Part shown: positions 6,351 through 35,216 of the stretch, piece after piece | Layout of the letters: each line of letters opens with the position of its first letter | Numbering within the stretch: the first letter of the stretch is position 1 | From: a virus | Virus record (IMG/VR): IMGVR_UViG_3300009701_000004 | Span: 27,376-91,375 of that record | DNA length: 64,000 bases | Strand: one strand, 5' to 3' | Translations under genes and position numbers: made by a program | The notes under the pieces: model-generated | What the model was told of the DNA's origin: nothing | What the model saw: only the letters and a program-made list of their open reading frames with translations | Databases searched by the model: none

Positions 6351-7184
6351 CTATGCTCCACAACCGGGCATTTTAGGATTAGAACCTGATGCTACAGTCT
6401 GTACTGGACCAGATGTCATTTTGGTATTAGAGGCGGAACTTCCCCCTCCTGAGTAAGAAGAGTTATTAGCCAGTGCGTAATCTTTCTGAATTACATCGTT
6501 AATGTATTGCTGAACACTTGGTTGAGGAACCCCGTTGGCAACTACAGCTTTACCGATACCATAATACCCTGCAAGTGCATTAACTATTTTGCTACCATAA
6601 TTTATAGATCCAGGGTATAGATAATGTCTTTCAAATACTATAAGCCCAGCTATAAGTTGGTTGGTTATCTGTTGATCGGTAGCAAGTTGACCTCCAATTG
6701 GACCCATAGTGCTGGTTATGTCGTCTCCGGGATTAACTAAGATAGGGTTTACAACAGAAGCCAAGTCTGGGCGACAGACTAATAATTGACAAGGTTTCGT
6801 CACACCCTTGATTAGGTATTGACCCATTACTTGACAAAGGCCGAAAGCACGACAACTCTGCTGAAGATTATATCTTTGTTGTTGGGTACCGTTGTTATAT
6901 ACGTTAGCCACAGCAGAATATTGGAGAAATTCTCTTTGAAAATAATCCCCTTTACTACCCACCACAATAGCCCCAAGCCTAGGAGGATTGACAAAAGCAC
7001 TTTCGTGTTGAATCAATGACATTAATATATTTATAATATCATTAGGTATTTCATTGGCCAAAGAGGACGAAAAGTATTTAGGTATGAACGTAGTCAACTT
7101 TTGCCTTACTATCTGTTTTAGAGAAGTAGAGGCTGAAGTAGTAATAGGAACTCCAGAAGTTCCAGTTGCAGGGGTTGTAGCCAT
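6351..7184 (-). CDS. Lysozyme/lytic-transglycosylase-fold protein, probably virion-associated
   Basis: IQHESAF (catalytic Glu-Ser), AFGLCQVM and ALAGYYG match the three SLT motifs. Confidence 0.6.
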   Translation of the reverse strand: MATTPATGTSGVPITTSASTSLKQIVRQKLTTFIPKYFSSSLANEIPNDIINILMSLIQHESAFVNPPRLGAIVVGSKGDYFQREFLQYSAVANVYNNGTQQQRYNLQQSCRAFGLCQVMGQYLIKGVTKPCQLLVCRPDLASVVNPILVNPGDDITSTMGPIGGQLATDQQITNQLIAGLIVFERHYLYPGSINYGSKIVNALAGYYGIGKAVVANGVPQPSVQQYINDVIQKDYALANNSSYSGGGSSASNTKMTSGPVQTVASGSNPKMPGCGA

Positions 7185-9019
7185 TAATATTGCCCTTCAG
7201 GACCGGAGCCAAAGTCCCTGCCAATTATGTAAGGAGTAATTGGGCTAGTGCTATGTTCAGGAGAATCTTCACTATATGCAGCAGCATTGAGAATAGAATC
7301 TTTAAGTTTGTTAAAAGACAAACGAGATATCCAATCCTTATCAAGCAATTTAGTAGATTGCAGCCCCGGAACAATAGGGGACACAGTTAAACCAGAAGAT
7401 GAAACAGCCACTTCCTTAATGCCCTTAGCTTTTAACTCGTCAACGTGATTACTATCCAGGAAAGTCCCTGGCGTTAAGCTTAATACCCCTTTAGCTAATA
7501 CTTTTCCTTCAGCTTGAGATATCGGAACAATCCCGTTGTTATGGGCTAGATATTTCGCCACGTTATTGACGGGTATTTTATCTCCAGGTAAAAATCCGCT
7601 TTGGCCAGGATTAACTACCTGTACATATTTAATCAAGTTTTTACTAATAACTTCGAACCACCGGGGATCGAGATCAGCACCATAAATGCCTCGCAATTCC
7701 TGAGTCATGTAATCTCTACCGGCACCAATGCCCCGTAACCCTACGAGTTTGCGAGGATTGATAACTCCCGTGGATAACCTATCTCCTTGACGAATTTTAT
7801 CGCCTTGAGATACTACAACGTTCTGCGATATAGGTACGAAGTGCTTTTTTTCGTTGATGAATACGTTGGTATCGCCCAGAGGTGTTTTCTCAATCTTAGA
7901 TACTACACCGTTTAATTCAGAGATAGTTGCTTCGTCTTTGAAGTTTTCAGCCGGGTTATTCAAAATATTACTGGCTTGATCATATGCATTACCACGCCGT
8001 TCTCCCACCGAACTCTTATGTTTAGTAGAAAGCATTGATTGCGTAAGAACTTCCGATACCGATTGTGCGGCTATAACACCAATGTTCTCACCTATTTCGG
8101 GAAGTTTGCCATTTGCAGCTAAACCAAAACATTTAACACAAGTACCTTCAGGAGCCTCGCAGGTAGTTGTACTACGAACTTTAACCTCTTTAACATTAGA
8201 AGATCGTAAATCGTCGTAATACCTCTCATCCATTAATGAATTCGTCCCGGCTTGAAACCTACCAATCAAAGATTTCTTATCGGAAATAGGCACCATAATA
8301 CCGTTGGTCGTGCCGCAGTCTTGGATAGTAATAACCTCGTTAAACAGGGTTGGGGAAATACGCTTGAATAGAGCCCCTGGGAGGGCCGTAGAGAGCTGCG
8401 AGAGGACAGTTGAAGCTCTACCCATGTAGCTGAGTGCTAAGTGCTCTGCGGGCGTCATACCCTCTGCAAAGCCGTGTTTGATAACTAGTGGTACCAACTC
8501 GCCTTTAATGTTCAAAGACATCAGGGGGGAAGAGGTGGCGTTAGCCAACTGAGATTTGTTACCGCGGGCTCCAAAGCGAGCCATATTAGCAGCAGTAGAA
8601 CCTTTGTTTACCAAGTAGGAAAGATTCTGGTCCTCAATCTTTGTGTTGTATTTACTGGTGAGATCCCCTAGATTTTTATTGATTTCAGCTTTACTCTTAC
8701 CGCTATTCTTAATATCCTGAACCTTGTGCGAGAACTCTTGAATCAAAGCTTGTCGTTCGTCGGAATCATTAATGTAATCTGACAATGGGGTAGATGCGCC
8801 AATCTCGGTACTTTTAGAGAAGAAAATTTTGCCTAAATCATTAATAGTTTCATGAGCGTTGTCCCCGCCTTTTGATAGCAGAGTGTTAATCATAGAAGAC
8901 ATGCCCTTTTTATCTAAAACTTTATAGGGATCATAAGCGGCTTTTGCTTCAGGAGTTGGCATTTGAGACTTGATCCACAAACTCCCGGCAGTTGTGATTT
9001 TCTTAGCATTAGTAGTCAT
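7184..9019 (-). CDS. rpoC: DNA-directed RNA polymerase beta' subunit, C-terminal piece (bridge helix, Zn site, trigger loop)
   Basis: GARGNKSQL, FAEGMTPAE, DCGT...RSTTTCEAPEGTCVKCFG, GENIGVIAAQSVSEVLTQSMLSTKH, WISRLSF, IIGRDFGSG correspond to bacterial RpoC C-terminal regions. Confidence 0.92.
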   Translation of the reverse strand: MTTNAKKITTAGSLWIKSQMPTPEAKAAYDPYKVLDKKGMSSMINTLLSKGGDNAHETINDLGKIFFSKSTEIGASTPLSDYINDSDERQALIQEFSHKVQDIKNSGKSKAEINKNLGDLTSKYNTKIEDQNLSYLVNKGSTAANMARFGARGNKSQLANATSSPLMSLNIKGELVPLVIKHGFAEGMTPAEHLALSYMGRASTVLSQLSTALPGALFKRISPTLFNEVITIQDCGTTNGIMVPISDKKSLIGRFQAGTNSLMDERYYDDLRSSNVKEVKVRSTTTCEAPEGTCVKCFGLAANGKLPEIGENIGVIAAQSVSEVLTQSMLSTKHKSSVGERRGNAYDQASNILNNPAENFKDEATISELNGVVSKIEKTPLGDTNVFINEKKHFVPISQNVVVSQGDKIRQGDRLSTGVINPRKLVGLRGIGAGRDYMTQELRGIYGADLDPRWFEVISKNLIKYVQVVNPGQSGFLPGDKIPVNNVAKYLAHNNGIVPISQAEGKVLAKGVLSLTPGTFLDSNHVDELKAKGIKEVAVSSSGLTVSPIVPGLQSTKLLDKDWISRLSFNKLKDSILNAAAYSEDSPEHSTSPITPYIIGRDFGSGPEGQY

Positions 9020-9025
9020 AGTCAG

Positions 9026-9031
9026 ATTTTA
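9026..9031 (-). promoter_or_regulatory. TAAAAT -10 element 6 nt upstream of the rpoC C-terminal piece ATG (probable leaderless transcript)
   Basis: Minus strand reads TAAAAT-CTGACT-ATG; no SD. Confidence 0.6.
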
Positions 9032-9058
9032 AACTATTGCAATGTTTTTTGGTATAAG
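9028..9058 (+). promoter_or_regulatory. Phage-type promoter TTTAAA-N16-TGGTATAAG
   Basis: One of 11 exact intergenic TGGTATAAG copies. Confidence 0.75.
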
Positions 9059-9154
9059 AAACTTAGAAGACAAACATCTTCAATCAAAAACTCACTGCTC
9101 TTTTAATCTCATGTAAACTTCAACTAACCTCATACTCAAAAAGGAGGAAGTGAA

Positions 9155-9436
9155 ATGCACAGTGTTAATTCACATATGTACCCGGATGTACCTACGGGGG
9201 TATTTAGGGCCGAGTTCGTAGATAATCTCGGTGACTGGGATGGATACTCATATGCCATCAATAAGGGGGACTTGCTCAAGGATATTAGGGCAAGAACGGA
9301 AACAATGGGTGACAAACTCATTTCTGAACCCAAAGTGGTGTTGGTCCCGGTCGGGTTAACGGTAGAAATTCATAAGGCTAAAGGTCATACAATGAGAACT
9401 AACCGTGACCTGGCGTACAAGAAAAGAACGCACTAA
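9155..9436 (+). CDS. Hypothetical early protein
   Basis: Strong AAGGAGG RBS; follows a TGGTATAAG promoter. Confidence 0.65.
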   Translation: MHSVNSHMYPDVPTGVFRAEFVDNLGDWDGYSYAINKGDLLKDIRARTETMGDKLISEPKVVLVPVGLTVEIHKAKGHTMRTNRDLAYKKRTH

Positions 9437-9457
9437 TTTTAATCTACGGGAGTAAAA

Positions 9458-10171
9458 ATGAATTCCATGCAAGAAGCTCTTAAGAAGGTAATATCTCAGG
9501 CACCACAGCTTCAGCCTCAACCTGACGAACGTACAGTAGTTCTTCCCCCATTAACCTTAACCCCAGAAGCACAACGGGAGATTGCAATGAGCAAGGTAAT
9601 TATTTCTACAGAAATGAGTCCAAAAACTGCAATCTGGGAACTCATGAAGGACCGGAAACCGTACACTTGTCAAGAGGTATCGTTGTTGTTGGAGCAGGCC
9701 GGGTTCTCTGCGAAGACAATTACTAACTGTTTCTATGCGCTACGTAACGAGGGCTGGTTTACCAAGTTCCCGAACGGATCCCCCAGGAATAGTTCGTATA
9801 CTTTGTCTGTAACTACTAAAAGGCCTAACGACGGGGGCAAGACCTATACTCGCCGTGCTTCGAGAAGTAACAAGGTTATTAAAAAGGGAGAAGTAACAGT
9901 TCTGCGCAGTGGCGAGTTCACTGCAACTGTTCAGGAAATGAACGATTCGTATCTTGAAGCCAAAAGGGGCGAAGCGATTCCTTCTAAGAACGTTCCGATT
10001 CCGCCCATTGCAGTGCCGGTCAAATCTCTAGAAAAACCAGCAGAGGAGTTTGCCGGTATTGTAGAAGTAATGATAACCATCGATGGTCGGCAATACACGG
10101 AGGCCAATGCTAGAAAGATATACGAGGCTCTTCACAAAACCTTCGGGGCGTTGGGCTTGAATTACAATTGA
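9458..10171 (+). CDS. Hypothetical protein, possible winged-helix DNA-binding domain
   Basis: GGAG RBS; IWELMK...TCQEVSLLL...ITNCFYALRNEGWF resembles a wHTH. Confidence 0.5.
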   Translation: MNSMQEALKKVISQAPQLQPQPDERTVVLPPLTLTPEAQREIAMSKVIISTEMSPKTAIWELMKDRKPYTCQEVSLLLEQAGFSAKTITNCFYALRNEGWFTKFPNGSPRNSSYTLSVTTKRPNDGGKTYTRRASRSNKVIKKGEVTVLRSGEFTATVQEMNDSYLEAKRGEAIPSKNVPIPPIAVPVKSLEKPAEEFAGIVEVMITIDGRQYTEANARKIYEALHKTFGALGLNYN

Positions 10172-10210
10172 ACATGAGTAGTGAGTAGTAGGTAGTAAAG
10201 ACGTTCCCTT

Positions 10211-10236
10211 AGACCCAGAGTACCGGGTCTTTTTTT
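10211..10236 (+). terminator. Intrinsic terminator
   Basis: AGACCC...GGGTCT hairpin plus T run. Confidence 0.7.
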
Positions 10237-10312
10237 GCTTAAAAATTTCAACAAATACTACGAAATTGGTAAAAGAAAAGTACCTTAACTATAATTATAA
10301 TCGAGATAAAAC

Positions 10313-11557
10313 ATGGCCATGCTCAGACCTGAAAATATATTGAACCTTTATACCCCTTCACCTCCGTCTCCCCCCGATTTTTTGAGAGAGACAGGTGCAG
10401 GATTCGGAGAAGTAGATCCTAATAATCGCACATTCTCACAATATATGTATAGAGATGTTGTGAATGCACTTACTCAACCAGTTAATCCCCCTACCACACC
10501 TACTATCAATATGGAAACTCCAACAATTCCCCATCTTACAAACACCGTATTTACTTTAGCTGCAAGAGAGCAGCAGGACAGGCTAATTCGTCGCCTGAAA
10601 CAATTGTATACCGTTTATGATTCCTCAGTAATTGCTTGCAATGAATACCCGAATTCAATTAGTTTTGGGGCAAATATAGAACACCCGTCGTTAGAGGTTT
10701 TGGTAAATACAGAAGCTGTTTTTGAAAAAATTGATTTCAATAGCCTATTGGAAGGGTTGGAAAGATTGCCTTCCAATACTTCCAATTCTTATAGTTTTTT
10801 AACTACCTTCAGGAATCATACATATAGGGTTAATCTATATATGGTCAACGGTGCTACTATGATGTATACCCGTAGATTTCTTGGTTACAAACCCTCTTAT
10901 TTCGTGTATAAGAAAATTCTTAAACGAAATTACAATATGGATTTGGAATTAGGAGGTCTATATCTAAATACAACTATTGCAGGAGAAAATAGAAAAATTC
11001 TTATAGACCGTAGCCCTACTGGCCTTCAAAATCTAGTAGGTATTTATGAATCTCATAATTTAAGCTCATTGAGATTTGAAGATTTTATATCTCAACTTGG
11101 ACAATGCAGACTTGCACATAGACAAATGTTTTCGGAAGATGACATTGAGACGGCTGACCCCTTGTTGATGAATGTTTCAATATATAGGAAATTTCTGGAA
11201 ACTATTAGAAATCCCTCCATATATTTTCACAGCCTCCCATTTACGGAAATTACTCCTGGACAAGCTAAGGCGAATGCCGATAACGCCCTGGACAGGTATT
11301 ACCCTAGTATTAAGGAATATCTTAAGCAAGAGGAAGGAAGTGTTAAATTGAATAGGATGATTGAAGACAGATTTGCGGCTTTGCCAAATATTACCGATCC
11401 TGAAGGCTTAAATGCTTTTATCAGTAAACTTCGTAATATGGTGAATTCGGAATCGGAATTCCTGCAATTAGTTCTTGGAAGTAATGCAGCAAATCTGGAA
11501 AGTCTCATTGATAAATGTAACAAGAAACATGGATTTGCTGTACCCTTAGCAGCGTAA
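10313..11557 (+). CDS. Hypothetical protein, possibly a degenerate nucleotidyltransferase (PolX-like) fold
   Basis: 414 aa; the pattern SFG..LEVLV/YSF/RVNLY/GGLY/YRKFL loosely recalls phage NTase-like proteins; variant promoter TGGTAAAAG at 10267. Confidence 0.35.
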   Translation: MAMLRPENILNLYTPSPPSPPDFLRETGAGFGEVDPNNRTFSQYMYRDVVNALTQPVNPPTTPTINMETPTIPHLTNTVFTLAAREQQDRLIRRLKQLYTVYDSSVIACNEYPNSISFGANIEHPSLEVLVNTEAVFEKIDFNSLLEGLERLPSNTSNSYSFLTTFRNHTYRVNLYMVNGATMMYTRRFLGYKPSYFVYKKILKRNYNMDLELGGLYLNTTIAGENRKILIDRSPTGLQNLVGIYESHNLSSLRFEDFISQLGQCRLAHRQMFSEDDIETADPLLMNVSIYRKFLETIRNPSIYFHSLPFTEITPGQAKANADNALDRYYPSIKEYLKQEEGSVKLNRMIEDRFAALPNITDPEGLNAFISKLRNMVNSESEFLQLVLGSNAANLESLIDKCNKKHGFAVPLAA

Positions 11558-11569
11558 CGTAAAAAGTAA

Positions 11570-11630
11570 AGGGCCTCTGCCAAGGGGTCTTTTTTAGCTA
11601 AAAAAACATCCTCTTCTACTGAAGATGTTT
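11570..11630. terminator. Back-to-back intrinsic terminators at a convergent junction
   Basis: GGGCCTCT...AGGGGTCT-T6 on plus; A7 then AAACATC...GATGTTT for minus. Confidence 0.6.
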
Positions 11631-11643
11631 CCCCCTTACATTT

Positions 11644-11748
11644 CTACTTCTTTTTGTTTCTATTTCTTATATACACTACTGCTACCATAACTATTACCAA
11701 TGAATACATTATGGTTAGATGATTATCTTTCAAGAATTGGACAAACAT
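11644..11748 (-). CDS. Small membrane peptide (34 aa, MFVQFLKDNHLTIMYSLVIVMVAVVYIRNRNKKK)
   Basis: AAGGAG RBS; own TGGTATAAG promoter (11777-11785, minus) and terminator; one TM helix plus basic tail. Confidence 0.7.
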   Translation of the reverse strand: MFVQFLKDNHLTIMYSLVIVMVAVVYIRNRNKKK

Positions 11749-11776
11749 TGAATCTCCTTTTTAAGTTATATACTTA

Positions 11777-11809
11777 CTTATACCAAATCGAATGGTCGAA
11801 GTTTAAAAT
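11777..11809. promoter_or_regulatory. Overlapping divergent promoters: TTTAAA-N16-TGGTATAAG (minus) and TAAAAT-N6-ATG (plus)
   Basis: Same geometry as 9026-9058. Confidence 0.65.
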
Positions 11810-11815
11810 ATAGGT

Positions 11816-12859
11816 ATGTTTAAAGACCAAACCCCCATCCTGTTAACCCGACAAATCCATGATGCTAAACGAGCAGGGCTGCATTATGACATCCGGTTGG
11901 TTCTTGGGGATAAAGCCTATTCATGGGCGACCCGCAGAGACATGCCAAAATTAGGGGAAACTATAAATATATATGAGCAACCAGTTCACGATTCCTCATA
12001 CGCCCTACGTAAATATATCTATATACCTCCTGGCAATTACGGTGCGGGGACTACGACATTAGATTTTGTCCGCAAAGCAGTTGCTCATAATAAAGAAAAC
12101 TTCAAAGGTAAATTCACTTTAACTGTCCCTTCTATTGGAGAGAGATATTTATTCAGGAAAGTTCCCAGTTATGGAGAAAATACTTGGATACTCAAAAATT
12201 TACCGCCTAAAGTAGAGACTGAAACTACTGAGAAAATAGAAAAACTAGCCACGATTATGCCTAACAAATATTTAACAAAAATAGCTTCTGACCTTGCCAA
12301 AGCGGAGCAATACGAAAAATCCGAGAAGAAAGAAGTACGTATGTATTCCAAGGAAGAGAAGGAGGCTGATTGCCCTGATCTTAAAGAAAAGCTTAGGGAA
12401 ATTATCCCCCAAGAGAAAGAGCACGCTAAGAAGTTTGAATCAGTTGTTAAAGCTGAGGAGAAAGAGAAGCAGGCTTCGATGGCCTACGAAGACCCATCTC
12501 CTGCTGTTGCGGTTGCTCTTACCGGAGGAATTCCTATAGGGGGAGGTTTAATTTTAATACCTAAATCTAGATTTAAAAATGGAATACCTAAAGCAGCAGT
12601 AGTTTCTAAGGATTCTGTTATGATGTTAATTCCCGATGTATTAAGCCATTTCAGTAAGGAGGCCTTTACCTCTCTTACTAAAAAAGCGTCCATTAATATC
12701 AAACCTTCTCATAAAGGTCTTTTGCATAAAAAGCTAGGTCTCAAACCCAATTCCCCAATCTCTGAATCTACTTTGGAATCTGCAGGTAAAGATGCTACTG
12801 GAAAATTGAAGAAAGAGATTGTGTTTGCAGAAAATGCTAGAAAGTGGCATCATAGTTAA
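11816..12859 (+). CDS. LigD-type 3'-phosphoesterase domain fused to a K-x-A-punctuated C-terminal extension
   Basis: HDAKRAGLHYDIRL, YSWA, QPVHDSSYA, IPPGNYGAGT match the LigD PE domain; then EKLA, NKYLTKIA, EKQA, SKEA, TKKA. Confidence 0.8.
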   Translation: MFKDQTPILLTRQIHDAKRAGLHYDIRLVLGDKAYSWATRRDMPKLGETINIYEQPVHDSSYALRKYIYIPPGNYGAGTTTLDFVRKAVAHNKENFKGKFTLTVPSIGERYLFRKVPSYGENTWILKNLPPKVETETTEKIEKLATIMPNKYLTKIASDLAKAEQYEKSEKKEVRMYSKEEKEADCPDLKEKLREIIPQEKEHAKKFESVVKAEEKEKQASMAYEDPSPAVAVALTGGIPIGGGLILIPKSRFKNGIPKAAVVSKDSVMMLIPDVLSHFSKEAFTSLTKKASINIKPSHKGLLHKKLGLKPNSPISESTLESAGKDATGKLKKEIVFAENARKWHHS

Positions 12860-12862
12860 ACA

Positions 12863-13762
12863 ATGTATCCTCGCCATACCTATAAATCAAACACAGTTAC
12901 CTCCTGGACTGAACTTAAAGATCCTGTCGCAACTCCTAAGTATGATGGGGCGAACTTCCACATGGTTATTGATAGTATAGGTAAGGTTAGGCTATTCTCA
13001 CGAGCTAAAGCTGTTGACGGAACATACCCTGAGCGCACTGAACAGTTGCCGCAATTGACTTCAAAGTTATTGCCTCAATTCGCAGGCCATGTGTATAACG
13101 TAGAATTGATCCATACGGGCCACAGTTCTCATAACAAAGAATCACATGGCAAAGTCAGTGGAATACTCAATTCCTTAACACCCAGGTCTCTGGAGACTCA
13201 AAAAGCTGAGGGCCCAATACGCGCTGTACTTATCAATGTTACAAATCCTGAATTACCTACTTACAGGGATAAGCTTCTTCATTTGAAAGAAGTAGAAAAA
13301 GCTTTCGGAAACTCTTCCCTGATGTTTGTCCCCACTCCCGCCATAGATAAGCAGGGCATTGTAAACCTAATACATTCAACCAAAATCTCGGGACGAGAAG
13401 GCGTTATAGTCACAAGTTTAACAGAACCTGAATATAAGAATCCCCGTATCAAAATTGTCCACACCAATATGTACAACCTCAGAGTCGTCAGGGTGAATCA
13501 AGAAATTGATATCACAGGTAAGCCTAAAGATTCTATGGGGTCTTTAACCGTAGTCGATGCAGTCGGCAGAATAGTCGGCAATGTTGGTACCGGTTTTAGC
13601 CGTGAAGATAGAATAGATGCTTGGGAAAACAAAGGGAAATGGGTCGGCAAATTAATCCAGGTTAAAGCCAGAGGCATTGTACGGGAGGAAGGTCTGTTAA
13701 AAGCTCCAGTGTACAACGGTTTTAGCGACGGTGAAATAGACACTGTAAACTTCAACTACTAA
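12863..13762 (+). CDS. ATP-dependent DNA ligase (minimal NTase + OB domains)
   Basis: TPKYDG (motif I), FSR, ELI, REGVIV, MGSL, VGTGFS, KAPVY. Confidence 0.88.
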   Translation: MYPRHTYKSNTVTSWTELKDPVATPKYDGANFHMVIDSIGKVRLFSRAKAVDGTYPERTEQLPQLTSKLLPQFAGHVYNVELIHTGHSSHNKESHGKVSGILNSLTPRSLETQKAEGPIRAVLINVTNPELPTYRDKLLHLKEVEKAFGNSSLMFVPTPAIDKQGIVNLIHSTKISGREGVIVTSLTEPEYKNPRIKIVHTNMYNLRVVRVNQEIDITGKPKDSMGSLTVVDAVGRIVGNVGTGFSREDRIDAWENKGKWVGKLIQVKARGIVREEGLLKAPVYNGFSDGEIDTVNFNY

Positions 13763-13780
13763 TCCTCATTGTGGTATAAG
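13751..13780 (+). promoter_or_regulatory. Phage-type promoter TTCAA-N16-TGGTATAAG
   Basis: Exact motif. Confidence 0.75.
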
Positions 13781-13820
13781 TATATAGTAATACCTAACTA
13801 CTCATCCGAGGAAATTTTCA

Positions 13821-14078
13821 ATGACCTACTTGTTAATGTTTGTCTCTTTAATAAACCTAATTATACTTGTAAGATACGGGTTTACTATTTACAATATCAA
13901 AGAAGAGCATCAATATTTAAGAAAAACCTTTGCTGCAAATCTTGAACTTGAAAACAAACGTTACAATGAACTACTACAAGAGGTATGGAGGATAAAATCA
14001 AATGCTGAACAAAATAAAACAAGCAGTGGCACGTATGATATATCCCGATTCGAAAAAGGAAGAAACGAGAAAAACTGA
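13821..14078 (+). CDS. Small membrane-anchored protein
   Basis: N-terminal TM helix; GAGG RBS. Confidence 0.6.
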   Translation: MTYLLMFVSLINLIILVRYGFTIYNIKEEHQYLRKTFAANLELENKRYNELLQEVWRIKSNAEQNKTSSGTYDISRFEKGRNEKN

Positions 14079-14163
14079 GGCGTATCTTCAGGCTAAACAG
14101 CGTGCAAAAGAACGGCGGCAAAAACGGGAATCAGAAAAAAATCAAACTTTTGACTTCACGTAA
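14002..14163 (+). CDS. Small basic protein (53 aa, MLNKIKQAVARMIYPDSKKEETRK...)
   Basis: GGAGGA RBS; ends just before the terminator; below ORF-track cutoff. Confidence 0.5.
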   Translation: MLNKIKQAVARMIYPDSKKEETRKTEAYLQAKQRAKERRQKRESEKNQTFDFT

Positions 14164-14170
14164 AAGATAG

Positions 14171-14199
14171 AAAAAAGCCCGAATTAATCGGGCTTTTTT
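14171..14199. terminator. Bidirectional intrinsic terminator
   Basis: AAAAAAGCCCGAATTAATCGGGCTTTTTT between convergent genes. Confidence 0.85.
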
Positions 14200-14206
14200 A
14201 GTTTAC

Positions 14207-16998: not shown

Positions 16999-17097
16999 TT
17001 ACCAGTCCTTATTATATAGAGTTATTTTAGTATAATTAAAGAATAGGGATATTGATGGTATAATCTTTATGAGACTACAAACCTTATATTAAAAACA

Positions 17098-18630: not shown

Positions 18631-18650
18631 GTTTACTTTTTTGGTATAAG
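18621..18650 (+). promoter_or_regulatory. Phage-type promoter TTCAA-N16-TGGTATAAG
   Basis: Exact motif. Confidence 0.75.
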
Positions 18651-18683
18651 TATATTACAAAGAACACTTCGGGAGAAATTTGT

Positions 18684-19013
18684 ATGTATACTTTAACGAT
18701 GGTTTACTTCATTTTCACAATGACGGGTCAGATTCTTACGGTATTTGGAGGAATTTTAGATGCCCTCTTAGCTAAAACTCCAGAAATGCCTAAAATAATT
18801 GTCAACCTCCTTAGCCCTACGGGATACTTGAGAAAGGCCTTTAGGCCGGTTAACAACATGTCTGCATTGATAGGGGCAATATTGGGTCATACTGTGGCGG
18901 GGTTAGCATTGGCATACTGGTTTTCGCACTACATAGGGGCTACGTTTGCATACGTGTACTTGACCTTTATTGTATATCACATATACAAAACTGTAGTGAC
19001 TTATAAAAAGTAG
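18684..19013 (+). CDS. Small multi-pass membrane protein
   Basis: Likely start ATG 18684 after GGGAG; about three hydrophobic helices. Confidence 0.6.
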   Translation: MYTLTMVYFIFTMTGQILTVFGGILDALLAKTPEMPKIIVNLLSPTGYLRKAFRPVNNMSALIGAILGHTVAGLALAYWFSHYIGATFAYVYLTFIVYHIYKTVVTYKK

Positions 19014-19017
19014 TAAT

Positions 19018-19050
19018 AAAAAGCCCAGATTAATCTGGGCTTTTCTTTTT
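19018..19050. terminator. Bidirectional intrinsic terminator
   Basis: AAAAAGCCCAGATTAATCTGGGCTTTTCTTTTT; near-copy of 14171-14199. Confidence 0.85.
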
Positions 19051-19054
19051 AGTA

Positions 19055-20233: not shown

Positions 20234-20239
20234 AAAGAT

Positions 20240-20245: not shown

Positions 20246-20259
20246 GCATTCATATAAAG

Positions 20260-20286: not shown

Positions 20287-20309
20287 AACTTATAAGGTTT
20301 AACTACCTA

Positions 20310-24258: not shown

Positions 24259-24259
24259 A

Positions 24260-27160: not shown

Positions 27161-27222
27161 GTTTAGTTTTGATTAAGTATCTATGAGCTTATTTTAGCCG
27201 ATTAATCAAAACCTACAAAGAC

Positions 27223-28563
27223 TTAGAACTCTTCAAAACGGTCTTTAGGAGGAATAGTTACTATGTAATTGAAGTAATCCATGAAGCGGGCGGGATTACG
27301 CGGGGCTCCGTCAAAACCTATAGTTAGGAAAACAAAAGAAGTGTAATCTGTACCCGCATCAACGTCGGGGATATTTCCATAATAAGCTATTCCTGCGCTA
27401 GAAATATCAGAAGATGATATTGTTTCTAACAAGGATGCTGGTATAGGCTGGTAGGTGTATTCCTGATCCGATGAAGAACTGGAGTCAGAAATCATAATGA
27501 TATTACTACTACCTGAAGCAGTTATAGAAGATATTACGGAATTTATATCCGTAACTGATAGATTGGCAAAAGTAACTTGTGCGGAGACATCGCTACTCAT
27601 GGAAGTGTCCACAGATATTGCAGTATTAGATAGCGATATTTGATTGGAATCAGAACTTGCACCAGCATCAGAGCTATTCAAATAATATATAACGGTATTA
27701 TATCCATTATCGGAAACCCCATTATTATCAAAAGCAAAATAGATAATAGAAGAACTTGAAGAATATCCATCCGTAACAGTTATAGAATCCGATAATAATT
27801 CACTTGACTGCATTGAACCTATAGATGTATCAGAACTAGAATCGGTATCAGTAGCATTTACCAATATAGTATTTGCAACTGCCGATTCTGAATCGCTAAC
27901 AGAATCATTGTCAGTATCAAATATGACGAATTGAGGGACGTCTGTAATGGAGTCGCTAGAAGCATTGCTATCCGTATTTGAAACTGTAGTAGTTGTAGTA
28001 TTAATATCTGAAGACGCATCTGAATCTGTCAAATTAGCAGTAGAACTTCCAGTACCTAGAGAAATACTGTCAGCAGAAGCATCGGTTTCTATAACTGAAA
28101 TAGAAGAGGCCATGCCATCGGTAATGGAATCCCCACCAGCATTAGTGTCAGTTAAAGATTTTGGTACGGCCATGGACTCAGTCAGGGAATCGCTGCTTGC
28201 ATCGCTATCAGTACCGGAATTGATATAGGCTAATTGATTTGAGTTGGAATCGCTACTCGCATTAGTATCGGTGGAAGAACTAATAGAAGCCATAGCTTCA
28301 CTAAAAGAATCAGAACTTGCACCGGTATCTGTTTGAGTTAATAGCGCAGCCAAGGTTTGAGATAGAGAATCAGAAGACGCTCCAGTATCCGTATTAGATA
28401 GCAAATATCCCAATATAAACGTAGTTGCATCTGAGCTAGAATCTGTGTCCGTAATAGACGCCATAAAAGTCCCTGGTGGAGTAGGGACAAAATTAAACCA
28501 TGTAACAGTAACGTCTGTTATATACGGTTTAAAATTAAGCCAGGTTACAACTACGTCTGACAT
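27223..28563 (-). CDS. Ser/Asp/Thr-rich repeat virion protein
   Basis: Many ~19-aa repeats built on TD(T/S)xASSDS. Confidence 0.6.
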   Translation of the reverse strand: MSDVVVTWLNFKPYITDVTVTWFNFVPTPPGTFMASITDTDSSSDATTFILGYLLSNTDTGASSDSLSQTLAALLTQTDTGASSDSFSEAMASISSSTDTNASSDSNSNQLAYINSGTDSDASSDSLTESMAVPKSLTDTNAGGDSITDGMASSISVIETDASADSISLGTGSSTANLTDSDASSDINTTTTTVSNTDSNASSDSITDVPQFVIFDTDNDSVSDSESAVANTILVNATDTDSSSDTSIGSMQSSELLSDSITVTDGYSSSSSIIYFAFDNNGVSDNGYNTVIYYLNSSDAGASSDSNQISLSNTAISVDTSMSSDVSAQVTFANLSVTDINSVISSITASGSSNIIMISDSSSSSDQEYTYQPIPASLLETISSSDISSAGIAYYGNIPDVDAGTDYTSFVFLTIGFDGAPRNPARFMDYFNYIVTIPPKDRFEEF

Positions 28564-29969
28564 TAAGCTTCTACTTCAAGCATTACCTGCGTTGAAGCTC
28601 CTGTTGTTGTAATTTGCACTTGATAATCAGCTACGGAACTTCCAAGAGTAATCCAAGAACTTACTCCTTGGTCAGTACCACTACTATTTTGTAAATGAGC
28701 CCGCACTTTACCGGATGTTCCTGAGTAGTAAGCAGCTATGTTCATAGTCCAATTACCTGCCGGCAGAGTTGCGGATAGGCCAAAAGTTATATTATTAGTA
28801 GTAGGTATTGCCGGACTAGTAACATAATTGGAATCGTTTTCCGTAACTTCATTTAATGTAGTATAAAACGAACCCGAGGGCATAGCAGTCCATCCTGCAG
28901 TAATAATATCACTTGCCGGTGTTACAGGATATAGGATTATAGATATAGAATCTGAAGACGAATCAGTATCTGTCAAAGACGCGGTGAAATTACCACTGGC
29001 TACTACTAATTCATACGCCCCGATATCCCAGGCAGACCCTTGAGGACGAGAAGTTCCCACAATATCATTTGCCGCTGGTACGTCAGTAGTGTCAGCAGTT
29101 CCATTGTCAACTAAAGAAGATCCGCTTGCTTTAATTCTAAAATCCATGGCGGAGCTGGTAACCCCGACGAATTGATTGGCGTACGTTAAGGATTGTTGGT
29201 TAGCTGAGCCGAAGCCTATAGTTCCATTAGAAGCATTATTACTGCCTGCCCAAGTACCTGCACTTGTATAGAAATTAGTAGCAAAACCAAAACATGCAGT
29301 ATTTGTAACAGTAAAGTGTTCACTAGACCCCGCAATGCCATATGCACTATTACTCACATCAGAAGGGGCTACGACAGTACAGTTAGCTATGTTCAAATAA
29401 TCGTAGGCTGCGGTAATGCCGCGAAGATTAGAAGAATTGGCTATGATTAAGGAATTAGATATCGTGGAATAACTACCCGGATTATACACTGCAATCCCAG
29501 TGCCGTTACCGTTAGTTTCTTGCAATATACATTGATTAATGTAATTGTTATTATCCGTTTGTAAACAAAACGATCCCGACCCATATCCTTGCAAATACAT
29601 CTGCAAACGATTTACGTAAACGTTCGGTTCACCGATGAAAAAGAGGCCGGTGTAAGATACGTTAACACGTAGCCCGACACCATAAGATTGATTGTATACT
29701 CCGGGATTAGTTGTAGCATTAGCATTGTCTACAAAAGACTGGCCCGCTGCTGCTGTAAAGGTAAGAGTATTGGTTGTATCAGTAGTTATACCAGTTACAC
29801 TTACCAAGATGCCTGAAGTGCTATAGAATTCTCCATCATTATAAAGAGAAATGATATAAGGGGTATTGGACCCCGAACTGGAGATATTGGCAGGTACATG
29901 AGAAAGTGCCGTAGCAATAGAGGTATAGTTTCTAGTACCGCCGGTACCAACGGTAATGGTTACTGCCAT
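28563..29969 (-). CDS. Beta-helix (pectate-lyase-like) tail spike/appendage protein
   Basis: Asn-ladder repeats; DFRIKASGSSLVDNG...DIVGTSRPQGSAWDIGAYE motif typical of beta-helix proteins. Confidence 0.6.
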   Translation of the reverse strand: MAVTITVGTGGTRNYTSIATALSHVPANISSSGSNTPYIISLYNDGEFYSTSGILVSVTGITTDTTNTLTFTAAAGQSFVDNANATTNPGVYNQSYGVGLRVNVSYTGLFFIGEPNVYVNRLQMYLQGYGSGSFCLQTDNNNYINQCILQETNGNGTGIAVYNPGSYSTISNSLIIANSSNLRGITAAYDYLNIANCTVVAPSDVSNSAYGIAGSSEHFTVTNTACFGFATNFYTSAGTWAGSNNASNGTIGFGSANQQSLTYANQFVGVTSSAMDFRIKASGSSLVDNGTADTTDVPAANDIVGTSRPQGSAWDIGAYELVVASGNFTASLTDTDSSSDSISIILYPVTPASDIITAGWTAMPSGSFYTTLNEVTENDSNYVTSPAIPTTNNITFGLSATLPAGNWTMNIAAYYSGTSGKVRAHLQNSSGTDQGVSSWITLGSSVADYQVQITTTGASTQVMLEVEA

Positions 29970-30319
29970 TATGACACCTTAGTTGTGGCGTTTAGTACAT
30001 CATCATTTTGTAATACTACAATGCCTTGGGTTCGACGCCCTCCTGCAAATTCTTGTGCGTTAGGCAGTTTATCTAAATCTAGAAGATGGCTTTTACGTGG
30101 GTAACGTTGCCCAGGCTTCATTAAATGTAATGGTGTGTGGAGGTCTTGTAAAGCTTGAGCGTGGGAGTGTAGAATAGGTGCCCGTATGATATGTAAATCT
30201 TGACGAGTTAATTCCAGGGCCGACCAATTCCACCCATCAGGTTTAATATCTAGTACTTCCCCACGCTGCATATGGTCGATATTAGGACCTTTAGCTACAG
30301 TTAACACAACTAATTCCAT
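29969..30319 (-). CDS. Hypothetical protein in tail operon
   Basis: Translationally coupled on both sides. Confidence 0.55.
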   Translation of the reverse strand: MELVVLTVAKGPNIDHMQRGEVLDIKPDGWNWSALELTRQDLHIIRAPILHSHAQALQDLHTPLHLMKPGQRYPRKSHLLDLDKLPNAQEFAGGRRTQGIVVLQNDDVLNATTKVS

Positions 30320-30850
30320 TTATTTGTACCCTAAAGTATTTAACAACGCTGCAGGTTCTTCGCTTGCCCAAAATGCTTCAACAGCTGGAGTCCAGTACTT
30401 AGTATAGTCACTGTAATTAGGGGTTCTCCCCGAGCCAGTCCAAGTACGAGTAAATCCACAAAGATTAGGGAAAGCAGAATCCAAGTAATTTACACCCAGA
30501 TAATTAGCCAATTTCCTAATTTCAGCATCATTTTTTATCAAATCTTCGAATTTTAAAATGAGGGTACTTGGATCATTCATCCATCCTACGAATTGGCTTT
30601 GCAATTTTACCGTATTCGTTGCAGCTGCAATGATAGTGCCCTCTGTGATATCTTTTCTTTGAAAACGTAACCAGCTAATTACAACATTTCTGGGGTCTCT
30701 AAAAATGACTATGTGCTTATCAGTGCCTTCAGGCAAAGTGTTGCCGAAAGGAATGTGGTTTACCATATAAGGATTTACTCCTAGCAGTTCACAAGCTTTT
30801 AACAGGGCGTGAGTGCCTGATTTAGGGCTACCGTTTACGCAAATAGTCAT
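30320..30850 (-). CDS. PAPS-dependent sulfotransferase-family protein
   Basis: 5'-PSB motif NGSPKSGTHAL; 3'-PB motif FRDPRNVVIS; LKFEDL. Confidence 0.75.
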   Translation of the reverse strand: MTICVNGSPKSGTHALLKACELLGVNPYMVNHIPFGNTLPEGTDKHIVIFRDPRNVVISWLRFQRKDITEGTIIAAATNTVKLQSQFVGWMNDPSTLILKFEDLIKNDAEIRKLANYLGVNYLDSAFPNLCGFTRTWTGSGRTPNYSDYTKYWTPAVEAFWASEEPAALLNTLGYK

Positions 30851-30861
30851 TTAACTTCCTA

Positions 30862-31488
30862 TTATGAAATAGAAGTAGAATAGCTAACAGTCAAAGTGTT
30901 AGTAGCTACAACTGGTTGAGCAGTACCGAAAGCACCTGCGCTATACAAAGTTCCCGAGGTGTTCATAAATGTTGACGAGGCACCCGTGCCTGTAACAATA
31001 AAGCAGCCATTGACGGTACCAGAGCCTGTAAAATAAAACGACAGGCCAGCGGATAATGCCTTAGTTGCAGTGCCAGAAGACACTGAAGATGCAGACCAAG
31101 CGCAAGTAGCACGAGTACCCGCACCACCAGAAGTAGTTCCTAATGTGTAAGTAGGTGCGTTAGTCGAACCTGCCTCAAGCCAGTTGGAGTGCGAAGACAT
31201 TGTGTCTCCGACAACCGGTGCGCCAGCATACGAGACTGAGCTGATCAAGCCCATGTACGGACCTACGACAGTGTAACTAGAACCTGCCAAGGTTGTATCT
31301 AATAGCAATTGCTTACCAACTGCTACAACGGTATTCTTCCACTTTTCTTCCCACAGCACATTGCCATCTGCATCTCTACAAACAGCAGTAAATACGCCGC
31401 CAACGGAAGTGTCGTCTTCAGCTACTGCACCTGTGCCAACAGCCGTGATAGTTTGTTCGTTTGAAATTACTTTATCGTTAGTATTCAT
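30862..31488 (-). CDS. Putative virion structural protein
   Basis: AGGAAG RBS for the next gene follows; beta-rich; VVAVGKQLLLD...GTLYSAGAF pattern seen in phage tail modules. Confidence 0.5.
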   Translation of the reverse strand: MNTNDKVISNEQTITAVGTGAVAEDDTSVGGVFTAVCRDADGNVLWEEKWKNTVVAVGKQLLLDTTLAGSSYTVVGPYMGLISSVSYAGAPVVGDTMSSHSNWLEAGSTNAPTYTLGTTSGGAGTRATCAWSASSVSSGTATKALSAGLSFYFTGSGTVNGCFIVTGTGASSTFMNTSGTLYSAGAFGTAQPVVATNTLTVSYSTSIS

Positions 31489-31492
31489 TTAA

Positions 31493-31681
31493 TTAAGCTC
31501 CTGACTCATCAGGTGTAATTTGATTTTCTAAAAACCACTTTGTGTGGTTTTCACCAGTTCCGTCTGTATATTCCACAAGATATTCTAGGGAATCATGACT
31601 TTCGTTGAATTGTGTCTTAACTACAGTTCCCGTAATTACTTGCACAATTTGTTTAACCTTTGTTCCTTTTGGTATGGACAT
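31493..31681 (-). CDS. Small hypothetical protein (SH3-like)
   Basis: First gene of the tail cassette; AGAG RBS; TAAAAT at 31775-31780. Confidence 0.55.
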   Translation of the reverse strand: MSIPKGTKVKQIVQVITGTVVKTQFNESHDSLEYLVEYTDGTGENHTKWFLENQITPDESGA

Positions 31682-31799
31682 TTGTTTCTCTCTTTTGAAA
31701 TGTTTCTGTAATACAAGTGTTCAGTGTTCTGTAGTCTTCCCCGTAACCGCTACAGCCGGAATGTGTATACGATTATTTTAACCCAACACTACAACAATG

Positions 31800-34700
31800 T
31801 TACATTTCGTCTATACTTTCAACTTCCTCTGCTTCTGGTTCATCTTCTACAACTTCTCCAGATGTGTGTACATTTAGAGATTTTAGAAATTTCCCAGTAG
31901 TAGTATCGTGTAAATTAAAAGTCCCTTTACCAGTTTTTACTATACCTATCGAACCATTTGCCAAAGCTTCAAACTCAGAAGTTTTTAATCCCAAAAGGCT
32001 TTTTACAGGTCTTTCAAATACAGGATTCACTATACTTTCTGCTAATTTATAATGGGTCCACTTGTTGCCTCTAATACCTCCAGTGGTTGAAGAATCGAAT
32101 AAACCACCTTTATCGGGTTCCAAATTCTTTGTTTGCAACATGGTAGGTTCTTTAATTTGACCATTGGACATTGATAAAATATCTTTATCTGTCAACGGAG
32201 AAGCTGTAATTACCCCATTACGAGTCTGTGTCTTAACCCCGGAAGCTGTTAAATAATTAAAGAACTTTTGAGTTGCAAAAGTCATTTTCGGTTTAGGCAA
32301 AGGTTGACCGGTAACGAATTTGTTCCAATATTCAGAATTCTCTTCGGATTTAAGAGTTGCAATTTCTTTCAAATTTTTACGAGCGTCAGATCCTAATAAT
32401 CCCAACATCTCCATATATCCAACACTCTTAGATCCTTCTTCACCGCCCTTGGTAGGTTGCATTACGTTATCATAGCCACCGGTACTACGAGCAGAATAGT
32501 TCTGGTCAGAAGTCTTATAAAGCTTAATGAAGTATTGAGGTCCAGTTAAAACTTTACCCAAATCTTTACCAGTAATAGGGTCAACCATCATTTCAGTATC
32601 GGAAAGGCCATGAGCTTTAAGTTCATTGTTCAACTCTACAACATTAGACCCTTTAGAGAAATTGTGAACTAGATAAGGTTTACCTGTTTTCTTGGCAATT
32701 TTTCCAGCCACGGTTTCCATCAATTGGCCCAAGTTAATACGGGATGTAACAGATGCCGGATTCAACACTATATCAGCGGGTTTACCGGTATCTTTCATGT
32801 ACGGCATTTGGTTATCATCTAGAATTTTAGACACAATACCTTTATTACCGTGCAGTCCAGTTAATTTATCGCCTATCTCCAACTCTTTTTCAGAACGCAT
32901 CAGAATACGTACCGATTTCCCTTCTGTATGAGCGTCCACAACAACACCTTCCTCGGTATGTGTCCAAGGCTCAGAAACGGGCTTGTAAGGCAAAACTAGG
33001 GTCTTGTGTAGCCTACCTAGCATCTTGTCCTCTGGAGTCGGCTCACGCTTCTCCAAAACGATATAAATAGGGTCCCCATTACGGAAGACCTGGCCAACTT
33101 TAGGAAAACCTTTATCATCTAATTTATCCAATTGCTCTTTGGTAAATTTGCCTGGAAAATAACGGGATATTAACGATTTCTTTAAAATAGTAGAGGGTTG
33201 AATGTCATAATCTACTTTATAGCAGTGGAGGCTAGATAGGCTGTCTGCGCAGGACTTGCTGATAACCAGACCGTCTTCGTGGTTATAACCCTTATACGGT
33301 AGGTACGCAACATTGAGATTCTTACCAAGCGCAAGCACCCCATTTCTAGTATAGTTATTATCTACTAGAGTAGTATTTGCTTTAACTTTATCACCTACTT
33401 TGACGAGCGGAGTTTCGTCGTTAATGAAACCCTTCATATTAAACGGAAGGTTTTTAACTAAAGGTATTGTGTGGTTTTTCTTACTCTCATCCTGGACTAC
33501 AATCTTATTAGCATCAACAGACATAACCGTACCATCTACGGGAGATACCGTCGAAACTACATTAGCTAATTGCTTTACGAAAGCTTTACCATCTTCATCA
33601 GTAGTTTGCACTAATGGCTGTTCACGATTTACCAAAGACAGGGCCTGAGGTATGCTTTTACCTGCCATGGTTAAGCGGCCAGGATGGTTGGAATTCAGGA
33701 AAGGGACTAGATTAGTAGTAACCGTGTACATATCGGTAGTATCGGCAAGCCAGTAATCAACCTTGCTTCTATCTATATCCCCCAACTCTCCCTTAATCTG
33801 TGCCTGTACAATCTTCTTTCCTTGTTGATGAGGAAATCCTATAACAGAAGACATAGCTTCCTGAACTGACAGAAAATGTTCTTGACCTTTATTATCTACA
33901 ACTCTAGAATAGAGATTACCATCCTTATCTCGACGGGCAGAAATGGTAAAACGAGTATCAATACCTGCATGACCTGATTCTGGAGTACGGGAAGGGTCGA
34001 TAATACCTAATTGGGATGGATCCAAATCGCGGGCGGACATAGGTACACCTCTATCATTGGAGATACCCCCCTCTAATCCGCCTAGCACCGTAACTTTACC
34101 AACGTTTTCAAGGGACTCAATAGGATTTGTTTCTGACGGGGTGGTAACCAAGTCGGAGTCTATGATGTAAGAACTGAAAATCTTATTGAAAGGACGGGAT
34201 ATGACAGTGTTACGAATTTTAATAGGTTGCCCGGTCTTTTCAGCTTTTTCCAAAGAGTAGCTGATACGATTCTTTAATGTGGAGGTGAGCAACTTCTCTT
34301 TACGGAAACGAGTTTCTAAGAAATCTGGTAGGTTTTGAACAGATTTGAATTGTAAAGAATCTCGGTTATCCTCTTCAACTTTACCCCCGTGGACATCGAC
34401 CAATTTCTTAAGAGATAGCAAGATAGTTTCTGCAGTAATGCCGGTCAACGGCTTACCTAAGGTAACATTAGTAACTACTGCCGAAAGCGTAGATTCAGCC
34501 AAGGACGTTTTCAAAGCCAAGATCTTATCTTCTTCTGAAGCTTTGGTGTCCTTCTTATACGTTAATTTATTGTACAGGTCCGTTATAACCTTACTCTCTT
34601 TACCGGCTGCAGCTTTCAGGTTATCAATCCAAACTTCTGGAGGGATGTAGTGCGCAACTTCGGTCGGGCCAATACCAAATACGCGAGTAATCAATGGGGC

Positions 34701-35216
34701 AAGAAGAATTTTAGAAGATTTAACTTCTAGATAGAACAGGTTAGTAGTAGGATCTAGTGTAATGGAAAATGACGATCCTTTACCCGTGTTATACATGGAT
34801 TCAAGCTCACCCGTATCTCTTGAACGAACATACACGCCTGGACGTAGTTGTAGCTGAGATGCAATATTGTAGTTGTTCCCGCGGTAAAGGAGCGTATGCT
34901 TATTTGTCAAATGAAAACTATCCATTAGATTAAAGTTATCCTGCTTATCTATAATTTTCCCAGTAGCATTGTCGGTTAATATTAAAGTTCCTCGAATAGG
35001 GTAAGTAAGGGATTTACTCTGCAGGATAGCATCTTTCTCATCAGCTAGAGTGTAATCTTTATGGTCGGGATGTATATTAGAAACTGAAAGAGTATAATTT
35101 TTTGTTACAATGGGGAATTGGGTAGTAAGCCCTGCAATAAGGGCTTTATCTACACGATCTGTAACCTCTTTTGGGGAGGCGAATATCTTCTGTAATTCAG
35201 CAGCGGTCTTTGGCAT
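31800..35216 (-). CDS. rpoB: DNA-directed RNA polymerase beta subunit fused to the N-terminal part of beta'
   Basis: SQLQLRPGVY, TPESGHAGI, LVPFLNSNHPGRLTMAG, GYNHEDGLVIS, GDKLTGLHGNKGIVS, LNPASVTSRINLGQ, GYMEMLGL; then beta'-like SPLTDKDILSMSNGQIKEP...PDKGGLFD...WTHYKLAESIVNPVF. Confidence 0.93.
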   Translation of the reverse strand: MPKTAAELQKIFASPKEVTDRVDKALIAGLTTQFPIVTKNYTLSVSNIHPDHKDYTLADEKDAILQSKSLTYPIRGTLILTDNATGKIIDKQDNFNLMDSFHLTNKHTLLYRGNNYNIASQLQLRPGVYVRSRDTGELESMYNTGKGSSFSITLDPTTNLFYLEVKSSKILLAPLITRVFGIGPTEVAHYIPPEVWIDNLKAAAGKESKVITDLYNKLTYKKDTKASEEDKILALKTSLAESTLSAVVTNVTLGKPLTGITAETILLSLKKLVDVHGGKVEEDNRDSLQFKSVQNLPDFLETRFRKEKLLTSTLKNRISYSLEKAEKTGQPIKIRNTVISRPFNKIFSSYIIDSDLVTTPSETNPIESLENVGKVTVLGGLEGGISNDRGVPMSARDLDPSQLGIIDPSRTPESGHAGIDTRFTISARRDKDGNLYSRVVDNKGQEHFLSVQEAMSSVIGFPHQQGKKIVQAQIKGELGDIDRSKVDYWLADTTDMYTVTTNLVPFLNSNHPGRLTMAGKSIPQALSLVNREQPLVQTTDEDGKAFVKQLANVVSTVSPVDGTVMSVDANKIVVQDESKKNHTIPLVKNLPFNMKGFINDETPLVKVGDKVKANTTLVDNNYTRNGVLALGKNLNVAYLPYKGYNHEDGLVISKSCADSLSSLHCYKVDYDIQPSTILKKSLISRYFPGKFTKEQLDKLDDKGFPKVGQVFRNGDPIYIVLEKREPTPEDKMLGRLHKTLVLPYKPVSEPWTHTEEGVVVDAHTEGKSVRILMRSEKELEIGDKLTGLHGNKGIVSKILDDNQMPYMKDTGKPADIVLNPASVTSRINLGQLMETVAGKIAKKTGKPYLVHNFSKGSNVVELNNELKAHGLSDTEMMVDPITGKDLGKVLTGPQYFIKLYKTSDQNYSARSTGGYDNVMQPTKGGEEGSKSVGYMEMLGLLGSDARKNLKEIATLKSEENSEYWNKFVTGQPLPKPKMTFATQKFFNYLTASGVKTQTRNGVITASPLTDKDILSMSNGQIKEPTMLQTKNLEPDKGGLFDSSTTGGIRGNKWTHYKLAESIVNPVFERPVKSLLGLKTSEFEALANGSIGIVKTGKGTFNLHDTTTGKFLKSLNVHTSGEVVEDEPEAEEVESIDEM

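Follow-up and report, generated by a model that had tools for sequence, protein, structure and literature searches.

The question raised by the DNA described here is whether one RNA polymerase (RNAP) of bacterial type can be encoded by a virus in three genes lying far apart. The stretch analyzed, called the window, comprises 64,000 nucleotides, positions 27,376 to 91,375 of the IMG/VR record IMGVR_UViG_3300009701_000004, and belongs to a 91-kb record with a CheckV completeness of about 52%. Read in reverse, it is syntenic with the 118.8–148 kb region of Salmonella phage Arash, and its source phage is an uncultured relative of that phage. Three open reading frames (ORFs) on the same strand, designated P1, P2 and P3 for RNAP pieces 1, 2 and 3, were compared with bacterial subunits by Pfam, PDB sequence searches and a MAFFT alignment of the concatenated P1+P2+P3 with Salmonella RpoB+RpoC, and with their relatives in 75 IMG/VR loci (labeled L003, L018, L073, etc.). 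Taking the best explanation of the locus as a whole, we consider it very probable that these ORFs together specify the catalytic core of a single bacterial-type phage RNAP.

The PDB sequence searches aligned residues 30–985 of P1 with residues 34–1045 of cyanobacterial β, residues 20–359 of P2 with 179–516 of Escherichia coli β′, and residues 34–521 of P3 with 586–1105 of the 1161-amino acid β′ chain 7l7b_D, the identity of the pieces to bacterial β/β′ being about 26–32% (E values of 1e-40 to 1e-68). In the MAFFT alignment the concatenated pieces were collinear with the Salmonella subunits over β 1–1341 and β′ about 20–1405, with breaks mapping to E. coli β′ about 170–178 and 551/552. Together with the Pfam matches (Table 1), these results bear out two proposals of an earlier sequence-only reading of this DNA, namely that a cellular-type RNAP is laid out in three collinear pieces and that rpoB runs directly into the β′ N-terminus; the joint passes from the C-terminus of β straight to β′ residue 20 or thereabouts. 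The losses along the alignment were β′ residues 1–18 and the β′ Zn-binding domain (E. coli about 66–100, with four Cys at 70–88), which is removed by a 32-residue deletion in every aligned member of the clade described below. The lineage-specific insertions SI1, SI2 and SI3 were also missing.

The motifs quoted in the earlier reading (GGLFD...THYKL, NRAPTL and AGDYDGD) were all confirmed. The AGDYDGD sequence of P2 aligned with NADFDGD, retaining the Asp triad, and GDKLTGLHGNKG and NPASVTSRINLG aligned to the Salmonella counterparts of the conserved β motifs GDK..HGNKG and NP..SR.N.G. The bridge-helix and trigger-loop regions aligned as well, and the trigger-loop His936 is retained. The β flap-tip and β′ clamp-helix regions, which in E. 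coli are bound by σ, were free of gaps. Of the rifampicin-pocket residues, D516, H526 and S531 are each replaced by another amino acid, from which the enzyme would be predicted to be insensitive to rifampicin. The break between P1 and P2 falls in a variable acidic linker and adjoins the site of an insertion of about 290 residues in Thermus β′; residue 21 of P2 aligned to Thermus β′ 456 but to residue 165 of the 1233-amino acid chain 2gho_D, which appears to be without this insertion. As a separate observation, cysteine is very scarce in the three pieces (two in P1, none in P2 and four in P3), and the four of P3 are exactly those of the second Zn site.

Table 1. Positions of the RNAP pieces and of other features in the window (aa, amino acids).
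Feature	Position	Strand	Description
RNAP piece 1 (P1)	31800..35216	-	1138 aa; complete β fused head-to-tail to β′ ~20–170, without Zn ribbon; Pfam RNA_pol_Rpb2_6, E 9e-66
RNAP piece 2 (P2)	19055..20233	-	392 aa; β′ ~178–551; clamp helices, lid, rudder, catalytic double-psi β-barrel with AGDYDGD; Pfam Rpb1_2 (2e-16), Rpb1_1
RNAP piece 3 (P3)	7184..9019	-	611 aa; β′ ~552–1405; F-loop, bridge helix, second Zn site (4 Cys), trigger loop without SI3, jaw, C-terminal clamp; Pfam Rpb1_5 (6e-15)
SLT-like lytic transglycosylase	6351..7184	-	277 aa; start overlaps P3 stop; invariant ES motif; SLT-family neighbors by features and structure
σ70-family factor	53266..54084	-	Pfam Sigma70_r2; 39% identical to Arash gp196
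Portal protein gene	35536..37440	-	Heads the operon with P1; 45% identical to Arash gp204 portal; weak PHROG portal match
101-aa ORF	35238..35543	-	Between portal gene and P1; function not assigned
Terminator-like hairpin	20262..20285	-	Directly upstream of P2; 10-bp stem, 5 GC pairs, then T run
Palindromic terminator-like hairpin	19019..19044	.	Just past P2 stop codon; 11-bp stem, 5 GC pairs, A and T runs on either side
Candidate late-type promoter element CTAAAATA	20239..20246	-	5 nt before P2 ATG
Candidate promoter element TTTAAAAT	9026..9033	-	6 nt before P3 ATG
Insert 1	20234..31799	-	11.6-kb late-strand cassette between P1 and P2; tail fiber, Mtd_N protein, sulfotransferase-like ORF, unknowns
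Tail fiber in insert 1	24260-27160	-	966 aa; CBM5/12 repeats; Pfam CBM_5_12 and PHROG tail-fiber matches
Fiber-like Mtd_N protein in insert 1	20310-21113	-	
Sulfotransferase-like ORF in insert 1	30320-30850	-	
Interval 2	9020..19054	mixed	10 kb between P2 and P3; Mom/CapR-like, late-strand ORFs, DNA ligase, phosphoesterase, unknowns; Pfam
Mom/CapR-like protein	17098-18630	+	510 aa; CapR homology domain and Mom-family domain (DNA modification)
Two late-strand ORFs in interval 2	14207-16998	-	
ATP-dependent DNA ligase	12863-13762	+	
LigD-type 3′-phosphoesterase fusion protein	11816-12859	+	Directly before the DNA ligase

The pieces are separated by 11,566 nt (P1–P2) and 10,035 nt (P2–P3) and are spread over 28 kb in all, the widest spacing between RNAP pieces measured. 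Their coordinates agreed with the earlier description, in which tail-fiber and accessory cassettes lie between pieces that keep the rpoBC order and the same strand. A layout so scattered might be the product of an assembly chimera, or the pieces might be decaying pseudogenes, and the source is indeed a 91-kb fragment on which inverted terminal repeats are flagged. However, an independent contig of 74,985 bp, obtained in a different study (2022 run), was collinear with the window over positions 18500–36000 (17.5 kb) with 706 differences and no gaps, by which an assembly artefact was ruled out. Near-identical contigs were also present in a second moss metagenome, one of them (31722–32916) crossing the P1 stop codon, gaps exist at the same site in L014 (8.2 kb) and L018 (more than 10 kb), and the three ORFs are intact with their catalytic residues retained. 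Chimera and pseudogenes alike are thus scarcely credible.

In Arash the counterpart of P1 and P2 is gp206, a single chain of 1525 amino acids, in which residues 1–1144 match P1 1–1131 and residues 1146–1525 match P2 20–392. P1 is 54% identical to gp206, and P3 is 52% identical to Arash gp216. In the Vibrio phages D69, D148 and D181 the regions of P1 and P2 are likewise fused, and P3 follows 0.66 kb downstream, a distance of 4.8 kb in Arash and 10 kb in the window. P1 and P2 could in principle be rejoined into an Arash-type chain after transcription or translation, through trans-splicing or a split intein, since homing endonucleases occur in the family, an HNH gene being located inside β in L073 and in the Vibrio phages. 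However, only 7 residues at the end of P1 and 19 at the start of P2 extend beyond the flush alignment to gp206, leaving therefore no room for intein halves, and the two genes lie 11.5 kb apart, with P2 having terminator-like hairpins of its own. With no spare sequence at the P1 and P2 ends, rejoining was rejected as exceedingly improbable.

The split is a property of a whole group of phages. Among the 31 sampled relatives whose P1 is at least 59% identical to that of the window, 29 are split at the same P1/P2 point; the gap ranges from 31 nt to 8.2 kb (L014) and exceeds 10 kb in L018. In L022 and L042 no P2 was found within 4.7–6.6 kb downstream of P1. All sampled relatives with a P1 identity of 55% or less have P1 and P2 fused, and at 31% identity the whole β::β′ is encoded as one ORF of 2035–2037 amino acids (L075:2-6115, L077:10001-16108 and L080:8343-14450). 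In L073:10001-15492, β itself is cut into ORFs of 515 and 997 amino acids by a gene for an I-HmuI-like HNH homing endonuclease (11831–12448), so that the Arash-like RNAP family has a third cut, distinct from the other two.

A maximum likelihood tree of the β part, rooted on Salmonella, placed the 29 split and two probable split forms in one clade (Shimodaira–Hasegawa-like approximate likelihood ratio test, SH-aLRT, 96), with the Arash-like two-chain forms as its sister group and the single-chain forms nearest the Salmonella root. Two changes of chain state, the minimum, are needed on this tree. The history that it suggests begins with an ancestor in which β and β′ would have been fused into one gene. 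A first cut after the catalytic double-psi β-barrel, at β′ 551/552, would have given the two-chain state of Arash and the Vibrio phages, and a second one in the variable acidic linker, at β′ about 170–178, the state of the window's clade; the new intergenic site would then have collected unrelated genes, in this phage the 11.5-kb tail-fiber cassette. The order of fusion, cut and second cut is the best reading of the tree, though not proven, and the layout of the window is best regarded as a further-split variant of an older fusion gene, common to the whole clade.

The pieces are widespread. The C-terminal region of P1 fell into 399 clusters at 90% identity, the first 120 of the 399 being nearly all chains of 1113–1178 amino acids, on contigs of up to 188 kb. 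For P2 there were 4740 representatives at 50% identity, most of them chains of 1450–2800 amino acids with the P2 region at about 1080–1850. Forms resembling the N-terminal and middle parts of β′ alone (about 450–530 amino acids) or the middle part joined to the C-terminal one (about 1000 amino acids) occur, as do stand-alone homologues of about 385 amino acids at 35–37% identity. The β/β′ of Ralstonia phage RP13 was examined as a possible clade member and discarded, being partitioned differently.

Pfam models of α (PF01000 and PF01193) and ω (PF01192) gave no match at E ≤ 1 in the 91-kb record, two relatives and the complete 180.8-kb Arash genome, and matched in 14 of the 14 control genomes, in keeping with the earlier statement that the window holds neither gene. 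The 277-amino acid ORF next to P3 was considered as a hidden α and ruled out: it is SLT-like, carries an invariant ES motif and has three homologues only. The 101-amino acid ORF was considered as an ω analogue, and family and fold searches gave no lead; its Arash counterpart gp205 does not appear in the part of the virion mass spectrometry (MS) table shown. The window encodes a σ70-family factor, and Arash has two σ70-family genes; the product of the window's gene probably serves this RNAP in initiation.

On balance, an RNAP independent of α would be slightly the more probable. The other possibility is that the phage supplies the β/β′ pieces and σ, and borrows the host α dimer, and perhaps ω, as an assembly platform. 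The pieces are far closer to bacterial β/β′ than the phiKZ-type enzymes are described to be, a σ70-type factor suggests an otherwise canonical holoenzyme, and the Arash MS table lists no host proteins. On the other hand, an enzyme packed in the capsid would require host α to be packed too, the β–β′ fusion is the change expected to replace tethering by α, and the RNAPs of jumbo phages function without α (PMC7598289). Recruitment of host α is, on this evidence, rather unlikely.

Evidence on the location of the enzyme comes from Arash. In its virion MS data, gp206 gave the most spectra (3516), above the major capsid protein, gp216 gave 1210, and the σ factor gp10 and the neighboring helicase gp217 were also detected (PMC10585845). 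The portal gene, the 101-amino acid ORF and P1 follow one another nearly without spacing, and the order of an ORF of about 600 amino acids, one of about 100 and P1 is kept, down to 31% identity, in the relatives with ORFs listed, the portal identity being assigned only to the ORFs of about 600 amino acids of the window and Arash. Homologues of the 101-amino acid ORF occupy the same place in L004, L005, L006 and L008 (33–41% identity). Given the virion MS of Arash and the way in which the place next to the portal gene is conserved, the enzyme is probably packaged in the virion of this phage. Packaging had been put forward in the sequence-only reading; the Arash homologues gp206 and gp216 and the place of P1 in the portal operon speak for it, and for the phage of the window it would hold by analogy.

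The genes might instead encode a late or middle polymerase that stays out of the virion and is merely encoded among structural genes. Packaging is not proven by gene position alone, and carry-over of abundant proteins is raised in the Arash paper (PMC10585845). Such a reading has to accommodate the rank of gp206 in the spectra, above the major capsid protein, and the persistence of the gene order over so wide a range of identity. It also meets the difficulty that the complete Arash genome holds one RNAP set, with one match per piece, so that a polymerase produced late would have to be at hand at the start of the following infection. We therefore hold a non-virion polymerase to be distinctly improbable, and prefer a packaged one.

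Signals that may serve the separate expression of P2 and P3 were found immediately before their start codons (Table 1). In many relatives a TAAAAT element is placed 4–7 nt ahead of the P2 or P3 start codon, and TAAAATA lies 4–6 nt before P3 in L003, L007, L034 and L038. Over the loci of the split clade, TAAAAT ending 0–9 nt before an ATG was found in 17 of 405 ORFs, about 11 of the 17 being P2 or P3, and in only about 6 of the roughly 370 other ORFs, an enrichment at P2 and P3 starts. This suggests that P2 and P3 have separate late-type promoters and would be translated from nearly leaderless mRNAs.

In the explanation proposed, P1 would be expressed from the portal operon, and P2 and P3 from their own late-type promoter-like elements; the three chains would assemble into a core without phage-encoded α or ω and use the phage σ70-family factor, and the core would be packed in the capsid, enter the host with the DNA and start phage transcription. 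A stronger form can be offered tentatively, as less than an even prospect: P1–P3 and the phage σ would make up a self-sufficient holoenzyme free of α and ω, packed and injected, giving an infection that is insensitive to rifampicin and independent of host RNAP from the first minute, with the fusion of about 150 β′ residues replacing tethering by α and with P2 and P3 made from leaderless mRNAs of their own late promoters.

Several points tell against this explanation. A record about 52% complete could be short of a subunit gene; the complete Arash genome offsets this, as far as Pfam models go, and a diverged α-like protein could escape such models. Virion preparations may, as the Arash authors caution, contain late enzymes carried over because of their abundance (PMC10585845). 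The sequence YTAAAATA is not over-represented across the whole window, and its position relative to start codons alone is informative. The fused-first direction of the history hangs on a root placed at one long bacterial branch, which was flagged by the tree tool. The present comparisons show that the pieces are homologous to bacterial subunits and collinear with them, that the split is conserved and that it does not depend on the source assembly; presence in virion preparations is shown for the relative Arash. Assembly of the three chains, packaging in this phage, independence of α, insensitivity to rifampicin and leaderless expression are inferred.

Among known systems the nearest are the RNAPs of Arash and of Vibrio phages D69, D148 and D181, which are 46–54% identical to the pieces of the window and share the β::β′ joint, the loss of the Zn ribbon and the 551/552 break. 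Arash (OQ632216) also has its RNAP beside the portal gene, encodes σ factors and has no detectable α or ω. It differs in that P1 and P2 form one chain (about 1450–1530 amino acids in the family), where the window has two genes 11.5 kb apart. In the Arash paper, gp206 is labeled simply 'beta' (PMC10585845).

The phiKZ- and AR9-like jumbo phages have multi-chain two-barrel RNAPs and no α or ω genes, and one of their two sets is packaged (PMC7598289). Their β is split and never fused to β′, they have no σ homologue and they are described as highly divergent from cellular RNAPs (PMC7598289). In the window, by contrast, β is whole and fused, and a σ70-family gene is present; there is one enzyme set (in Arash). 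The break of jumbo-phage β′ after the barrel has been reported to lie at the cyanobacterial site (PMC7598289; PMC13282480). In cyanobacteria and plastids β′ is encoded by two genes (γ/rpoC1 and rpoC2) that are divided, as in the window, beyond the catalytic barrel. The cut in the window is about 70–100 residues before the cyanobacterial one, P2 ending at γ about 523–554 of 624–626, which agrees with the earlier view that the second break lies close to the cyanobacterial one without coinciding with it.

In Helicobacteraceae and Wolbachia the β C-terminus is joined to the β′ N-terminus in one reading frame (Zakharova et al. 1999, as cited in PMC7483510). These are complete cellular fusions that keep α and ω, whereas the window keeps about 150 β′ residues on β and full fusions are found only in L075, L077 and L080. 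The mReC phages are uncultured Caudovirales whose RNAP subunits can be aligned with their cellular counterparts, and among the entries listed these are encoded by separate adjacent genes, e.g., for 1364 and 1004 amino acids; they were selected by a length of at least 800 amino acids plus NADxDGD (Weinheimer & Aylward 2020, PMC7481178). Compared on these selection criteria and on the supplement rows, the window differs by its AGDYDGD motif and its shifted gene boundaries. No published description of a fused and recut RNAP was found in the searchable, incomplete literature, and the layout is a three-gene variant of a widespread, essentially undescribed phage RNAP family.

Phage transcription usually relies either on a very diverged, σ-less multisubunit RNAP of the phage or on σ factors for the host enzyme (PMC13282480). 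The Arash-like family does both, having its own RNAP and σ, and its RNAP is still easily alignable to RpoB/RpoC. Its one-, two- and three-chain versions of one core, with only two permissive cut sites, amount to a natural experiment on the covalent links and the accessory subunits required for assembly of a bacterial-type RNAP, and Salmonella phage Arash is a cultured, tractable member. The window illustrates how far the fission goes: a functional "gene" extends over 28 kb with a host-range cassette inside it, and automatic annotation mislabels the scattered pieces or misses the enzyme.

The content of the gaps differs between phages. Insert 1 has no homologue in Arash, three-quarters of whose genome was covered in the comparison of insert and interval gene content, and one weak match among the loci of the 75 relatives. 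In the nearest relatives, L014 and L018, other structural and fiber-like genes occupy the P1/P2 gap, and in L069 an RRXRR nuclease gene is present at the site equivalent to insert 1. Since varied and unrelated genes are found there, the new intergenic site would seem to behave as an insertion hot spot, occupied here by a host-range module. A homing-endonuclease origin of insert 1 was considered and put aside, there being no such gene in the insert of the window; the HNH gene of L073 and the RRXRR gene of L069 leave a lead only. In interval 2, the Mom-like, ligase and phosphoesterase genes recur 3′ of P2 in many split-clade relatives and, in loci that include P3, lie between the two pieces; they were not found in the regions of Arash compared.

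Two further observations concern the rest of the window. The sequence TGGTATAAG, an extended −10-like element (TGnTATAA), has 12 exact copies between positions 9050 and 61593, 11 of them on the + strand ahead of + strand non-structural genes, and may mark a class of promoters transcribed early, whether by the host enzyme or the injected one. BLASTP among the fiber-like ORFs gave no significant similarity; by eye, the fiber-like proteins encoded at 24260–27160, 20310–21113 and 15751–16998 (all − strand) have a similar N-terminal pattern of about 40 residues, M-A/Q-x-I/A-T-N...Y/F-x-I-A/P-P..., which may be a common attachment module.

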